Below, in pieces: positions 12,168 through 16,951 of a DNA stretch of 55,768 nucleotides. The translations under genes and the position numbers were made by a program. The DNA comes from an uncultured Clostridia bacterium (lineage in GTDB: Bacteria > Bacillota > Clostridia > Christensenellales > UBA1242). The notes beneath the pieces were generated by a model that worked only from the letters and a program-made list of their open reading frames with translations, had not been told where the DNA came from and did no database searches. The stretch spans positions 1 to 55,768 of the forward strand of contig CALWGA010000040.1 in NCBI GenBank assembly GCA_944377825.1, in the 5' to 3' direction. Every line of letters begins with the position of its first letter. Positions within the stretch are counted from its first letter, which is position 1.

Positions 12168-13376
12168 ATGACAACATTTTGGTATGTGTTGCTGGCAATA
12201 GTGATTCTTCTGTTCATGGTTATGGTTCATGAGTTAGGTCACTATATAGCAGGCAAAATTTTAAAATTTAAAATCACAGAATTTTCCATTGGTTTTGGCA
12301 AAGCCATCTTTTCTCGTACCTCTAAAAAGACAGGCGAAAAGTTTTCACTTCGTATCTTTCCGCTGGGCGGATATTGCTCGTTCTATGGCGAAGATGACGA
12401 CGGCACGGCGGAAAAAACCGAAAAAGGCGAGTTAGAAAAGAGTGATGTAGAAGTCGTTGACGCAGAAAAAATAAAAAAAGTTGACGGAGTGCCTTTCAAC
12501 AGTCAAAAACCTTGGAAAAGGATAATCGTCTTTCTTGCAGGCGTCACCATGAATTTCATAACCGCCATTCTCTTTTCGTGGATTCTACTTTGCACGGTGG
12601 GCTATGATATTCCGCAGATTATCGACTATAGCGCAACCATAAATGTCGATGAAAGCGGGCATAGCATTTTTCAAGAGGGCGATGTTATCACACATATCAA
12701 TGGGCAAAAAATCGACTTTGCTTTTGGTGTGAATTTTAATACCGCCATCTCCAATCAAAAAGATGCGGCGAAAGAATACTACGAAAGCGAAAACTATGAC
12801 GGTGGAGAATATGTCTTTAATATGACTGTTCGCCGTGACGGAGAGAGCATTCCATTAGATAATGTCAAAATAATTCAAGAAACCGTGACCGAAACGAACG
12901 CCGAAACTGGCGAAGTGACAACAAGTTATGTCTACCTTATGGGCCTAGAAAGCACGGAAGATAGGGTCTGCACACAGGCATATAAATATGGATTTTTCGA
13001 AGGCCTAGGTCGCTCGTTTTCCATGGCGTTTGGCTTTGCTTGGGTGGTGCTTAAGAGCCTTTGGATGCTTATCACCTTCCAAATCCCTATCACAGAAATG
13101 GGCGGAACGATAACAACAATCGCCACAATGGCGGAGTATTCAGCGATAAATCCAGCAAATCTTTTAATTTTCATTCCACTTATCTCGGCGAACCTTGCCG
13201 TGTTCAACCTGTTGCCATTTCCAGCATTAGACGGAGCACATGTGCTGTTCACCGTCATTGAATGGATACGCGGAAAGCCGATAAACAGAAAGGTAGAAAA
13301 CACCATTCACTTTGTCGGCATATGCATCCTCTTTGCCTTTGTCGTCATCGTCGACATTCTCCACTTTGTGCTTTAG
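12168..13376 (+). CDS. rseP: RIP metalloprotease RseP (site-2 protease)
   Basis: HELGH zinc motif, FSIGFG, PLGGY, PDZ-like region, NLLPFPALDG. Confidence 0.95.
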   Translation: MTTFWYVLLAIVILLFMVMVHELGHYIAGKILKFKITEFSIGFGKAIFSRTSKKTGEKFSLRIFPLGGYCSFYGEDDDGTAEKTEKGELEKSDVEVVDAEKIKKVDGVPFNSQKPWKRIIVFLAGVTMNFITAILFSWILLCTVGYDIPQIIDYSATINVDESGHSIFQEGDVITHINGQKIDFAFGVNFNTAISNQKDAAKEYYESENYDGGEYVFNMTVRRDGESIPLDNVKIIQETVTETNAETGEVTTSYVYLMGLESTEDRVCTQAYKYGFFEGLGRSFSMAFGFAWVVLKSLWMLITFQIPITEMGGTITTIATMAEYSAINPANLLIFIPLISANLAVFNLLPFPALDGAHVLFTVIEWIRGKPINRKVENTIHFVGICILFAFVVIVDILHFVL

Positions 13377-13401
13377 AGCATAGCAAACGCTATGCTTTTT
13401 T
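13375..13401 (+). terminator. intrinsic terminator after rseP
   Basis: AGAGCATAGC-aaac-GCTATGCTTT followed by T-run. Confidence 0.8.
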
Positions 13402-13496
13402 GTTAGGTATAAGATTTATTAGACGCTATATTAAAAATCATCATATAATTTAAAACAATTTCACTTAATTAAAAGCAAATATTAATCAAAAACGAC

Positions 13497-13525
13497 TTGA
13501 CAAAATGGCGGGTAGTTTATAAAAT
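13497..13525 (+). promoter_or_regulatory. sigma-A promoter (probably leaderless transcript)
   Basis: TTGACA-17-TAAAAT; ATG 13533 lies 7 nt downstream; no SD. Confidence 0.7.
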
Positions 13526-13532
13526 ATATAGT

Positions 13533-15062
13533 ATGAATTTTGAGCAGGAATTTAGCAAAAAGTTTGGCGATAGGTTTCCAAATTTATACTTAAAAAATGT
13601 TGTGGTGAGTGGGGACACTTGCACGGTGACCTTCCTTTATCCATCCGCTGACGAAACGCTCACTGACGCCGAAAAAGAGGAAATAACAAAGTTTGTGGAA
13701 GAAAAGTTGGGACTTGTCAATTTAAAACTTAAGGTTAAATTCATGAAGGCGTATGTTGAAGAAAAGTTGATAAGAAAGGAACTTTCTATCATTTTGGAAG
13801 ATAAGTTTAAGTTGCTAAACACCTATATTCACGATGAAGATATCAAAGTGGAGATAACAAACATCGACTGCACAATTACTTTTGATGTCAGTCCGAGACT
13901 ATCGCAATTTTTTGCCGATAACAAGGTGTCGTCATATCTTGCAAAGTTATTAAAAGATAACTTTCTAATGAACTTCAATATAAATTTAAATGTTTTAGCC
14001 GACAAAATAGACGAAGTAGATTTAGACGATATTAAGGTTAAAACGCCGTCTTATAAAACGCAAAGATATGATGTTTTGGTTATCAAAGATGTCATCGGCA
14101 AAGACATACCGCCAAAGCCAGAGTATATTTCAAACATTCAATATCCAAAATCGGCGGTCATACTTGCAGGCTATATTTCCGACCTTGAGCGCAAAGATTT
14201 TGTCATCAAAAAGGGCGCGCGTGCTGGTCAGCAAAAGGCGTATTATAAATTCAACCTAATAGATAGGAAAGGTAGAATGGAGTGTATTTATTTTTGCCCT
14301 AAGAAGAACGAAAGAGATATGGACGCGCTGGAAGAGAATATGTTTTTGCTTTTGCATGGAGATGTCAGGCTTGGGCTTAACGGCAAACTGACGCTGTATG
14401 TCGACAAACTTGCGCTTGCCAGCGAAACAGAACAAAAAGAAGAAATTCAAGCGCCAACGGAGGCAAGAGAAATTGAGATTGAGAGGCTTGGTGCACTTGA
14501 GCAAGACAGCATGTTTGGTGCGGTGGAGAAGTATAACCATAAGATTATGGATAATAACATCGTGGTGTTCGACGTGGAGACGACAGGGCTGAATCCAGAA
14601 ACTGACCAAATAATCGAACTTGGCGCGGTTAAGATTGAAAAGGGGAATATCGTTGAAAAGTTTTCCACTTTCGTCAAGCCAACCATTGAAATACCATATG
14701 AGGTCACAGAACTTACGCATATCACAAACGAAATGGTGGAGGATGCGCCAGATATTGAGGACGTCATCAGACAATTCTACGATTTTTCGAAGGACTGCGT
14801 GCTGTGCGGACATAACATCATCAACTTTGACATCAAGTTTATAAGGCGTTTTGGAAGTTTGCAGAACTTAAACTTTGACAACAACATAATCGACACCATG
14901 AATGAGGCGAGAGTTTCTAGGCTTAAAATTTCGCGTTTCAACCTTGGCACTGTGACGAAGGCGCTGGGTATTGAACTTAAGGGCGCGCACAGAGCGTGGA
15001 ACGACGCTTTTGCCACCGCACAGGTGCTTTTGAAACTAAACGAAATCGGCAGAAAGATGTAG
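13533..15062 (+). CDS. PolC-derived protein: N-terminal domains + OB fold + DEDDh 3'-5' exonuclease, lacking PHP and polymerase core
   Basis: Sits at the polC position between rseP and rimP. OB-like segment (ILAGYISDLERK..YKFNLID..LLLHGDV); exonuclease motifs VVFDVETTG, GHN..NFD and HRAWNDA. Only 509 aa, then a stop. Confidence 0.85.
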   Translation: MNFEQEFSKKFGDRFPNLYLKNVVVSGDTCTVTFLYPSADETLTDAEKEEITKFVEEKLGLVNLKLKVKFMKAYVEEKLIRKELSIILEDKFKLLNTYIHDEDIKVEITNIDCTITFDVSPRLSQFFADNKVSSYLAKLLKDNFLMNFNINLNVLADKIDEVDLDDIKVKTPSYKTQRYDVLVIKDVIGKDIPPKPEYISNIQYPKSAVILAGYISDLERKDFVIKKGARAGQQKAYYKFNLIDRKGRMECIYFCPKKNERDMDALEENMFLLLHGDVRLGLNGKLTLYVDKLALASETEQKEEIQAPTEAREIEIERLGALEQDSMFGAVEKYNHKIMDNNIVVFDVETTGLNPETDQIIELGAVKIEKGNIVEKFSTFVKPTIEIPYEVTELTHITNEMVEDAPDIEDVIRQFYDFSKDCVLCGHNIINFDIKFIRRFGSLQNLNFDNNIIDTMNEARVSRLKISRFNLGTVTKALGIELKGAHRAWNDAFATAQVLLKLNEIGRKM

Positions 15063-15255
15063 AAAAATTTTACAAATTCATAAATTATCAGGGATATTTT
15101 TCTAAATCAATTCAAATTTTTAAGCATTTTTCGGTTTAAAGATTAAATTAATCGTTAAAAAAGCAAAATAATAGGATAATTTCTTTATATTTTTTGAAAA
15201 ATCTATTAAAAAATCTTGCTTTTTTATAAATTATAGGTTATAATATAACTATGCT

Positions 15256-15291
15256 AGAGGCAGGGAGTGGGCAATGTTTGCTCACTCTTTG
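15256..15291 (+). promoter_or_regulatory. rimP-nusA-infB leader hairpin/attenuator
   Basis: GGGAGTGGGCAA-tgt-TTGCTCACTCT followed by TTG, downstream of TTGCTT..TATAAT; resembles the GAGTGGG..CCACTC leader of Firmicute rimP operons. Confidence 0.65.
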
Positions 15292-15310
15292 TGTTAATAG
15301 GAGGAAAAAT

Positions 15311-15769
15311 ATGGCAAAAGTCAAAGAGATAAGCGAAGCAAAAATTCGACCTATCATCGAAGAAATGGGCTATGAACTTGTTGATGTGGAATATAAGAAG
15401 GAATATGACGGCATGAGCCTTATCTTCACAATCGACAAGGAGGAGGGCGTGACCATCGATGATTGCGAAAAGGTCAACAAGGTTATCGACCCCATTATCG
15501 ACGAACTCAATCCAACCGACGACCAACCTTTCACTTTGGTGGTTTCAAGTCCGGGCTTAGATAGGCAACTTAAAACTGACCGCGATTTAAAACGCACTGT
15601 CGGCAAAGATGTGACCGTCACTCTCTTTTCAAAGGTAAATGGAAAGAAGAATTTTGAAGGAACGCTCATTTCATACGACGAAAAAACGATTAAAGTCAAA
15701 GTTAAGGATGAGGAAATGACTTTCGACCGCGACAAGATTGCAGGGCTGAAACTTGTCATTAAATTTTAA
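15311..15769 (+). CDS. rimP: ribosome maturation factor RimP
   Basis: GYELVDVEY, IDDCEKV, LVVSSPGLDR; ATG 15311 after AGGAGG. Confidence 0.97.
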   Translation: MAKVKEISEAKIRPIIEEMGYELVDVEYKKEYDGMSLIFTIDKEEGVTIDDCEKVNKVIDPIIDELNPTDDQPFTLVVSSPGLDRQLKTDRDLKRTVGKDVTVTLFSKVNGKKNFEGTLISYDEKTIKVKVKDEEMTFDRDKIAGLKLVIKF

Positions 15770-15790
15770 AGGAAATTAAAGGAGAAAATA

Positions 15791-16951
15791 ATGGTAAACA
15801 AAGATTTTTTTAAGGCGCTAGACGACTTAGAACAGGAAAGAAAAATAGACAAAGAGACTTTCATTCAAACACTTGAAACCGCTTTAACATCGGCATATAA
15901 GAAGATGTATGGCGAGGCAAAAAGTGCCATGGTTAAACTCTATCCAGAGCGCAACACGATAAGAATTTATTCCTATAAGACGGTTGTTGACAATGTTGAG
16001 GACGAGGATAAAGAAATTTCGCTTGAAGAGGCAAGAAAAACCAAAAAGTCCTATAAAGTCGGCGACATCGTGGCAGTTGAAGAGACCACAAAGGACTTTG
16101 GAAGAATTGCCGCTCAAACTGCTAAGCAAGTTGTTATGCAAAAGTTGAGAGAACTTGAAAGACAACAGGCAGCAAGCGAACTTTCTGAAAAAGAGGACGA
16201 ACTTTTAACCACAGTTGTTAAGCGTATCGACGGCGATAACGTTTTTGTGACCATTCCTGGCACGAACACCGAAGGCGCACTTATGAAGCAAGACCAAATT
16301 CCAGGTGACAAATTTCAAGTCGGTGACAGAGTTAAGGTCTATGTTAAAAAGATAAAAGACTCCTTCCGCGGTCCACAAATTCAGGTTTCAAGAAGCAACA
16401 TCGGTTTTGTTAGAAAACTTTTTGAACTTGAAATTCCTGAGATTGCAAGTGGCGAGGTTATCATTAAAAACATTGCACGTGACCCTGGCAACAGAACAAA
16501 GGTGGCAGTTTACAGCGAAAAACCTAATGTTGACGCAGTGGGCGCATGTGTTGGTAACCGTGGCTCAAGAATCAACACCATTGTCAACGAACTCAACGGC
16601 GAAAAGGTTGATTTGGTGGAATATTCTGACGACCCACTTGAATACATTGCAAGATCGTTGAGCCCAGCGAAAGTGCTTTCAGTGGAGACAAACGATAGTT
16701 TGAATATGAGTCAAGTCATCGTTCCTGACGACAAACTTTCACTTGCCATCGGCAAAGGCGGACAAAATGTTAGGTTGGCTGCAAAACTTACAGGCTGGAA
16801 GATTGATGTTAAGCCTGAAAGTTATGTTAAACCTGTGAAAGACAACAAAGAGCCTGAATATGAACTCACAGAACTTGAGGATGACACCTCTTTTGACACA
16901 ATGAGCGATTTTGACGACCTTGAAGAAATCAACGGAGACGAAGAAAACTGA
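15791..16951 (+). CDS. nusA: transcription termination/antitermination factor NusA
   Basis: FGRIAAQTAKQV, FELEIPEI, ARDPGNRTKVAV, LAIGKGGQNVRLA. Confidence 0.99.
   Translation: MVNKDFFKALDDLEQERKIDKETFIQTLETALTSAYKKMYGEAKSAMVKLYPERNTIRIYSYKTVVDNVEDEDKEISLEEARKTKKSYKVGDIVAVEETTKDFGRIAAQTAKQVVMQKLRELERQQAASELSEKEDELLTTVVKRIDGDNVFVTIPGTNTEGALMKQDQIPGDKFQVGDRVKVYVKKIKDSFRGPQIQVSRSNIGFVRKLFELEIPEIASGEVIIKNIARDPGNRTKVAVYSEKPNVDAVGACVGNRGSRINTIVNELNGEKVDLVEYSDDPLEYIARSLSPAKVLSVETNDSLNMSQVIVPDDKLSLAIGKGGQNVRLAAKLTGWKIDVKPESYVKPVKDNKEPEYELTELEDDTSFDTMSDFDDLEEINGDEEN

Follow-up and report, generated by a model that had tools for sequence, protein, structure and literature searches.

What remains of PolC, regarded as the hallmark replicase of the low-GC Gram-positive bacteria, when its polymerase is gone? 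The question is raised by a gene for a protein of 509 amino acids (aa) on contig CALWGA010000040.1 of an uncultured Clostridia bacterium (assembly GCA_944377825.1; Christensenellales, UBA1242), whose 55,768 nucleotides (nt) were analysed as a whole and are called the window below. The initial annotation, made from the letters of the window, had read this gene as a polC reduced to its N-terminal domain (NTD), OB fold and DEDDh exonuclease, with a clamp-type motif in the linker between the last two, and had proposed that its product serves as an epsilon-like trans-proofreader in a DnaE-only replisome. That the gene is an orthologous descendant of polC, converted rather than decaying, in a lineage with DnaE1 as its only polymerase of this class, is strongly supported by the data presented here. 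We infer clamp binding, contact with DnaE1 and nuclease activity, and a clamp-tethered trans-proofreader is a plausible description of the protein.

Domain architecture and descent from PolC

Domain mapping recovered an exonuclease and, below threshold, an OB fold, and found neither PHP nor polymerase. Pfam RNase_T (PF00929) matches residues 344-499 (E 2.3e-34, 119.7 bits against a cut-off of 24) and TIGR00573 is passed as well (111.9 bits against 71.5), while the Pfam OB fold PF01336 matches residues 211-293 with E 3.2e-5 and 24.2 bits, under its 27-bit cut-off. The best NCBIfam match of the protein is a PolC model, over model positions 410-585 only, and both PolC models fail their cut-offs (NF001688, 173.4 bits against 873; TIGR01405, 160.9 against 1043). 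The protein has no Pfam match to a PHP domain and its chain ends after the exonuclease; the Pol III alpha core PF07733 is matched neither in the protein nor elsewhere in the window's own assembly (G000: 55 contigs, 852,688 bases, 75.84% complete). The exonuclease is complete, as annotated, with DVE at residues 347-349, NFD at 431-433 and HRAWND at 486-491, and across a family of 205 members D347, E349 and D433 are kept in every one, H486 and D491 in 204. We assign the protein to the DEDDh/DnaQ-type family and predict a 3'-5' exonuclease activity. No tail follows the nuclease: in an AlphaFold2 (AF2) model the last helix reaches residue 502 of the 509, and a tail is likewise absent from 21/21 orthologs.

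The descent of the other parts was traced by profile comparison. In hhalign, 21 short forms (alignment A1), drawn from the genus of the window and from three further families, match eight full PolC proteins of the same order (A2) with a probability of 100% and E 3.2e-59 over 483 columns, and the two are colinear, short-form columns 13-510 running along PolC columns 18-586. Since the exonuclease dominates such a whole-protein score, the N-terminal parts were tested alone. Shallow profiles gave E 1e-10 for the OB fold and a weak result for the NTD (E 1.2e-3, probability 19.6%); deep profiles, made from 205 family members and 28 PolC N-termini, gave E 1.7e-17 for the OB fold, on PolC columns 222-327, and E 1e-9 with a probability of 96.5% over 134 columns for the NTD, which is thus significant only with deep profiles. 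None of the controls was significant (reversed PolC, E 0.52 for the NTD and 0.11 for the OB fold; DnaN, 0.29 and 0.76); against DnaE the NTD gave a non-significant E of 0.049 and the OB fold 2e-7 on DnaE's own OB fold, as expected. The proposal that the N-terminal half is PolC-like is upheld by these values. PolC columns ~325-410, the first half of PHP, have no counterpart in the short form, which carries there a linker of ~45 residues without a match to a PHP profile; taken with the missing Pfam PHP and PF07733 matches, this agrees with the annotated loss of both PHP halves and of the catalytic core.

With a mean pLDDT of 83, the AF2 model shows three folded modules and drops below a pLDDT of 50 at residues 306-309 and 322-329 of the linker, and its top Foldseek match in the PDB is PolC itself, in the cryo-EM structure 9qpc_A (E 1.5e-20, 386 columns). 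A PDB sequence search with the N-terminal profile returned weak OB-fold matches only (YhaM, E 1.8e-4; the DnaE OB fold, E 0.88) and nothing for the NTD; the NTD of PolC is not resolved in the cryo-EM structures (PMC12592400). The genomic position tells the same ancestry: rimP-nusA follows the short form at all 20 loci examined, rseP precedes it at 19 of them, and rimP stands 3' of full polC in four of eight PolC loci, namely those whose flank extended to rimP.

Distribution, selection and the remaining polymerase

How far this architecture reaches was asked of 201 genomes drawn evenly across the order, of which 199 have a completeness of 90% or more. Full PolC exceeds its cut-off in 99, and one further genome (G131) has a PolC split over two contigs. 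An N-terminal profile (A3) at E <=1e-5 hits 104 genomes, four of them weakly, inside full PolC in G020, G103 and G171 and in an unrelated 410-aa frame in G185, which leaves the short form in 100; its frames measure 489-596 aa except in four genomes in which it is located at contig ends. No genome among the 201 holds both forms, and the 38 families sampled divide cleanly into 17 with the short form and 21 with PolC, none being mixed. Genome sizes, read off the survey without statistics, are 0.8-2.3 Mb with the short form and 1.3-4.5 Mb with PolC. A single genome, G197 (family f37, 2.0 Mb, 96% complete), shows neither a PolC above the cut-off nor a hit to the N-terminal profile and gave an exonuclease-level match only (E 5.4e-39); the gene may have diverged further there, or been reduced more.

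Among 30 relatives, an ortholog of 511-538 aa (28-57% identity) is present in 18/18 genus-mates and in G025, G028 and G030, and nine other families have a full PolC fragment or gene plus DnaE. The N-terminal profile, run against a library of 1.84 billion representatives, found 622 proteins at E <=1e-3 and 215 at <=1e-30, with none longer than 577 aa among the best 150 matches. A locus search with exonuclease patterns from A1 returned 80 loci of which most were ordinary PolC of other Clostridia. The sole database name for the protein is 'ribonuclease H-like domain-containing protein'. A quick DnaE1 tree has one branch (SH-aLRT 100) that splits 12 short-form rows (4 families) from 8 PolC rows (8 families), so that a single truncation event would suffice, sufficiency not being proof: the tree is unrooted, it covers 12 families, and DnaE1 may itself have shifted after the loss of PolC.

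The short gene is neither a decaying nor a misassembled one. Between the window and an ortholog of 85% identity the ratio dN/dS is 0.077, and two further pairs gave 0.086 and 0.061; by domain it is 0.10-0.12 in the NTD, 0.04-0.08 in the OB fold and 0.01-0.06 in the exonuclease, every scorable domain standing at or below 0.12, and saturation affects the linker in two pairs out of three. With the catalytic residues kept and the architecture found in 100/201 genomes, conversion rather than decay, as first proposed, fits these ratios. The stretch 13300-15400 is contained in 20 sequencing runs from nine studies, mostly chicken gut metagenomes, and two contigs from two different studies, X2 (11,134 nt, covering 13460-15900) and X3 (2,203 nt, covering 13086-15288), both bridge the stop and the end of the gene into rimP; one run may be the source sample, so that at least one of these contigs is independent. 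Neither has an indel inside the gene, the sole indels lying upstream of its start. Strain differences across the stretch are mostly transitions. Read-through or recoding of the TAG stop was considered and rejected, the spacer behind it being closed in all frames; the PolC model alignment does extend 6 codons beyond the TAG, but the same overhang crosses TAA, TGA or TAG in other genomes and hence does not suggest recoding.

If the polymerase domains of PolC are gone, which polymerase remains? Exactly one pol III alpha match, of 1200-1283 aa, occurs in 18/18 genus-mates and in G025, G028 and G030, and NF005298 places it in the DnaE1 type (1454 and 1359 bits, cut-off 1260), with a match along the whole protein, the region behind the OB fold included. 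Five genus-mates with a completeness of 99-100% gave no PolC polymerase-core match outside DnaE1, the PolC model hitting there the short gene, DnaE1 or, in G146 only, a 347-aa exonuclease-like frame (model positions 418-602). On this ground a split PolC with its polymerase half elsewhere was rejected, and neither a full-length PolC nor a separate PolC polymerase piece was found beside the single DnaE1 of the near-complete relatives. The internal clamp motif of DnaE1, GQxS[LMF]F, is kept in 20/20 sequences.

Two side observations concern these relatives. A few genus-mates have a second small DEDDh exonuclease (G146:C22:626-1195, the 347-aa frame just mentioned; G008:C2:43523-44017, a 205-aa frame), with 33% identity to the exonuclease domain of the remnant and without a counterpart in most genus-mates. 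The DnaE1 proteins of the genus (L041-L049) carry insertions at alignment columns ~341-362, 555-563 and 1130-1136: 17-22 residues between PHP and palm, partly shared with G025, some 9-12 residues in the palm (KPPVLKYYF), and an acidic stretch before the OB fold. These insertions were weighed as a docking site for the remnant and rejected; they are limited to the genus, apart from the one partly found in G025, and their absence from the other short-form families indicates that they are not tied to PolC loss.

The features of the locus are collected in Table 1. As annotated, an uninterrupted 509-codon frame with a near-consensus promoter of its own stands between rseP and rimP. Upstream lie frr, uppS, cdsA and rseP, downstream rimP, nusA, ylxR and infB, and we take frr-uppS-cdsA-rseP-X-rimP-nusA-ylxR-infB, the gene order of B. 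subtilis, to be the classical Firmicute polC locus. The hairpin behind rseP separates the PolC-remnant gene from it. The region has 7 promoter sites of the kind that precedes the gene against 5.7 expected, which is no enrichment. As the -10 box ends 7 nt from the ATG and a Shine-Dalgarno sequence is absent, the mRNA is probably leaderless; most orthologs in the genus have a TATAAAAT-like box 5-9 nt 5' of the ATG (judged by eye). The ATG is taken as the start because the alternative TTG (13497) is the first base of the -35 hexamer and all orthologs align from the ATG. In the window, six of the 43 open reading frames (ORFs) of at least 150 aa (starts 540, 1528, 13533, 15251, 37076 and 47735) likewise have no Shine-Dalgarno sequence and a TATAAT/TAAAAT box ending 6-8 nt before the ATG, a layout that suggests leaderless mRNAs for all six, the PolC remnant and rimP among them; a strong AGGAG precedes most genes of the window's genome. 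No RNA run is among the listed sequencing runs that carry the stretch. The annotated absence of a polymerase remnant before rimP stood, since the frames are closed and tblastn with eight PolC proteins gave only chance matches (E > 1); the gap is 188 bp, not the ~250 bp first given.

Table 1. Features of the PolC-remnant locus, in window coordinates
Feature	Position	Strand	Remark
RseP	12168-13376		upstream flank
Terminator-like hairpin with T run	13375..13398	+	3' of rseP; 10-pair stem, then TTTGTT
Sigma-70-type promoter, TTGACA-17 nt-TAAAAT	13497..13525	+	11/12 consensus matches
PolC-remnant gene, 509 aa	13533..15062	+	NTD, OB fold, linker with candidate clamp motif, DEDDh exonuclease; TAG stop 15060-15062
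NTD, residues 1-160	13533..14012	+	two alpha/beta subdomains homologous to PolC NTD
OB fold, residues 181-298	14073..14426	+	homologous to PolC OB domain
Linker, residues 299-340	14427..14552	+	poorly conserved; stands where the N-terminal half of PHP was
QDSMF, residues 324-328	14502..14516	+	candidate beta-clamp-binding motif Q-x-x-[LM]-F; 22 residues before first exonuclease motif
DEDDh 3'-5' exonuclease domain, residues 341-505	14553..15047	+	PolC type; PF00929, NCBIfam PolC model
Spacer to rimP, 188 bp	15063..15250	+	stops in all three frames
rimP	15251..15769	+	gene after polC in Firmicutes

Possible roles of the PolC remnant

The consensus for binding the beta clamp is Q-x-x-[LM]-x-F, or a pentapeptide of the QL[SD]LF type, in a flexible region. 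The QDSMF pointed out in the linker by the initial annotation lies where it was placed and holds up across the family: Q324 and F328 are invariant in 21/21 orthologs, and among the 205 members 195 have Q at position 1, 195 have one of N, S, D and T at position 3, 199 have one of L, M, I and F at position 4, and at position 5 180 have F and 16 have L. Mean column conservation is 0.61 in the motif, as in the exonuclease, against 0.32-0.34 in the linker, and in 16/18 named loci of metagenome-assembled genomes the motif stands 21-25 residues before DxETTG. The full PolC proteins of the order have no motif at this place and carry NQLSLF at their extreme C-terminus, which means that the short form has lost the clamp motif of PolC and has one at a new position. 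A complex prediction of DnaN with remnant residues 296-509, run without controls, gave a median of 0.22 against a mark of 0.32 (runs 0.06, 0.38 and 0.22). We regard the linker motif as a candidate clamp-binding site.

It is tempting to propose, and we consider it rather probable while leaving ample room for doubt, that a descendant of polC which lost PHP and polymerase and gained a linker motif now works as an accessory exonuclease in trans, beside DnaE1 as the sole replicative polymerase. The gene would have lost both PHP halves together with palm, thumb, fingers and HhH and kept NTD, OB fold and DEDDh exonuclease, and the linker that replaced the N-terminal half of PHP would have gained Q-x-x-[LM]-F. 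A single DnaE1-type polymerase would then replicate the genome on both strands, accompanied at the fork by the remnant as a polymerase-free accessory 3'-5' exonuclease, whose linker motif would dock in one cleft of the dimeric beta clamp, the one left free by DnaE1, which would be bound to the other through GQxS[LMF]F. The OB fold and NTD may retain the former contacts of PolC with single-stranded DNA (ssDNA) and the clamp loader, and the nuclease would trim the mispaired primer ends of DnaE1 in trans, beside the apparently intact PHP proofreader of DnaE1. A broader version can be put forward only tentatively, as one that could well prove wrong: that exonuclease-only PolC is a property of the whole lineage, 17 of the 38 families and about half of the genomes sampled having switched from PolC plus DnaE1 to DnaE1 only, that the nuclease of PolC and the parts by which it docked on the replisome were retained as a new accessory subunit, and that DnaE1 there now depends on this subunit for fidelity or fork stability.

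Several observations weigh against a trans-proofreader docked on the clamp. The nine PHP residues HHDHEHCDH of DnaE1 (string from the available part of PMC12926913, columns assigned by sequence context) are intact in 20/20 sequences, whether or not the genome has PolC, so that the remnant is not needed as the only proofreader and 'second proofreader' fits it better than 'epsilon replacement'. The short form of G028 reads QMSAF, with alanine at the hydrophobic position of the motif, and in mycobacteria the clamp motif of DnaQ is dispensable for its antimutator function (PMC11348249). The remnant also evolves faster: within the genus its identity is 39-57%, that of DnaN 67-87%. Finally, searches of the window's own assembly with PF07733 and NF005298 yielded no pol III alpha, and its DnaN is present; at 75.84% completeness DnaE is most likely unassembled there, its gene probably missing from the bin, and the DnaE1 partner of the window is accordingly deduced from relatives.

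Could the protein instead be a clamp-associated exonuclease of repair or DNA-end processing, acting in mismatch-repair excision, at gaps or at stalled forks, with the PolC parts serving as a tether to clamp and ssDNA? The intact PHP signature of DnaE1 speaks for such a role, as do the presence of MutL (PF01119) in 30/31 relatives including the window's assembly (G000:C48:9083-9433), by which mismatch repair, and with it the requirement for an excision nuclease, is present, and the finding that the remnant is the only RNase_T-type nuclease found in that assembly; a clamp motif, moreover, is common to many repair proteins. We nevertheless hold this explanation to be unlikely, because the direct ancestor of the domain is the PolC proofreader, because the protein retains the NTD and OB fold of PolC, which are not known from repair nucleases, and because the polC locus beside rimP-nusA-infB was kept. 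In B. subtilis, furthermore, the PolC exonuclease already proofreads DnaE in trans (PMC5627055). As an observation apart, mismatch repair has been kept in these ~1 Mb genomes despite genome reduction.

A purely structural part in the replisome, in which NTD, OB fold and clamp motif would join DnaE1, clamp loader and clamp and the nuclease would be secondary, seems to us quite improbable. It would account for the dN/dS of 0.04-0.12 in NTD and OB fold, to which no catalysis is ascribed, and it would suit both the proposal that the PolC NTD binds the clamp loader (PMC3919608) and the impaired polymerisation that follows dnaQ loss in E. coli (PMC11348249). Against it, the catalytic residues are the most conserved feature of the family (204-205/205) and the exonuclease has the lowest dN/dS, which points to selection on catalysis itself. 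We find it scarcely credible that the gene is a polC in decay or cut short, a product of misassembly, or one of the halves of a PolC split in two: the incompleteness of the window's assembly, where no pol III alpha was found, and the 6-codon overhang of the PolC model would allow it, but the recurrence of the architecture in half of a survey of 201 genomes (100), the dN/dS of 0.06-0.09, the contigs that bridge the stop, the closed spacer and the lack of a PolC core outside DnaE1 in five genus-mates stand against it.

Comparison with known systems

What is new here has to be delimited with some care. Timinskas et al. reported that some Clostridia have a single DnaE1 (PMC3919608), so that the type of replisome is itself not new. 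The same paper calls the role of the clostridial pair PolC and DnaE1 uncharacterised, and reports PolC variants that lack the inserted exonuclease from Clostridia and Negativicutes alone; a 2026 survey of more than 3000 complete genomes distinguishes three replicase combinations and several DnaQ groups (PMC12926913). A polymerase-free NTD-OB-exonuclease remnant of PolC is not mentioned in the available parts of these two papers, and full-text literature searches did not find the architecture described; the supplements of both may list it among unassigned DnaQ homologs. Judged from sequence comparison, the novelty would lie in the PolC-derived architecture of a stand-alone DEDDh exonuclease, a putative proofreader, and in its wide, previously unremarked distribution.

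If a lineage has dispensed with the PolC polymerase, clostridial DnaE1 can, by implication, replicate a genome alone, and the strong selection on the exonuclease and N-terminal modules points to these as the indispensable part of PolC. The short-form lineages would also offer a natural system for studying trans-proofreading and co-proofreading with PHP. Since antibiotics aimed at PolC are meant to leave organisms without PolC unharmed (PMC12592400), it may be added that the gut Clostridia with the short form would have no PolC polymerase domain of the kind that those drugs target.

With PolC (NF001688, TIGR01405) the remnant shares homology and colinearity over NTD, OB fold and exonuclease and the same place before rimP; unlike PolC, it has no PHP, palm, thumb, fingers, HhH or C-terminal QLSLF, and has a new internal Q-x-x-[LM]-F. 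The epsilon subunit (DnaQ) of E. coli, with the clamp motif QTSMAF, is likewise a separate DEDDh polypeptide in a DnaE1-only replisome, and in both proteins a clamp-type motif adjoins the nuclease. The remnant differs in that its motif stands before the nuclease and not after it, in lacking the C-terminal tail that binds the PHP of alpha (7 residues follow its last helix), and in its ~300 extra N-terminal residues. Short-form DnaE1 moreover keeps an intact PHP site, unlike proteobacterial DnaE1 (PMC3919608). Of the proposed epsilon-like trans-proofreader in a DnaE-only replisome, the DnaE1-only replisome is borne out in the relatives, and the likeness to epsilon needs revising, the PHP being intact, the tail absent and the motif on the other side of the nuclease.

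Closer in its setting is the non-canonical DnaQ of mycobacteria, which binds the clamp and acts alongside the PHP proofreader, and for which a co-proofreading model was proposed (PMC11348249). Like the remnant, it is a DEDDh exonuclease with a clamp-type motif beside a DnaE1 with intact PHP; the remnant is PolC-derived and carries NTD and OB fold, and the fold that the two share is DEDDh. In B. subtilis the PolC exonuclease proofreads errors of DnaE in trans within a ternary complex of DnaE, PolC and template (PMC5627055). That nuclease is of the same lineage, and its activity is an ancestral one that the remnant could have kept, with the difference that in B. subtilis it sits within a working PolC and has DnaE3 as its partner, while the remnant has lost the polymerase and would work with DnaE1. 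The short form may be viewed as an intermediate between polymerases with a built-in proofreader and those with a separate one and, if the reading as a clamp-docked trans-proofreader is true, it would show how a stand-alone proofreading subunit held on the clamp can arise from a polymerase that carried its proofreader within.

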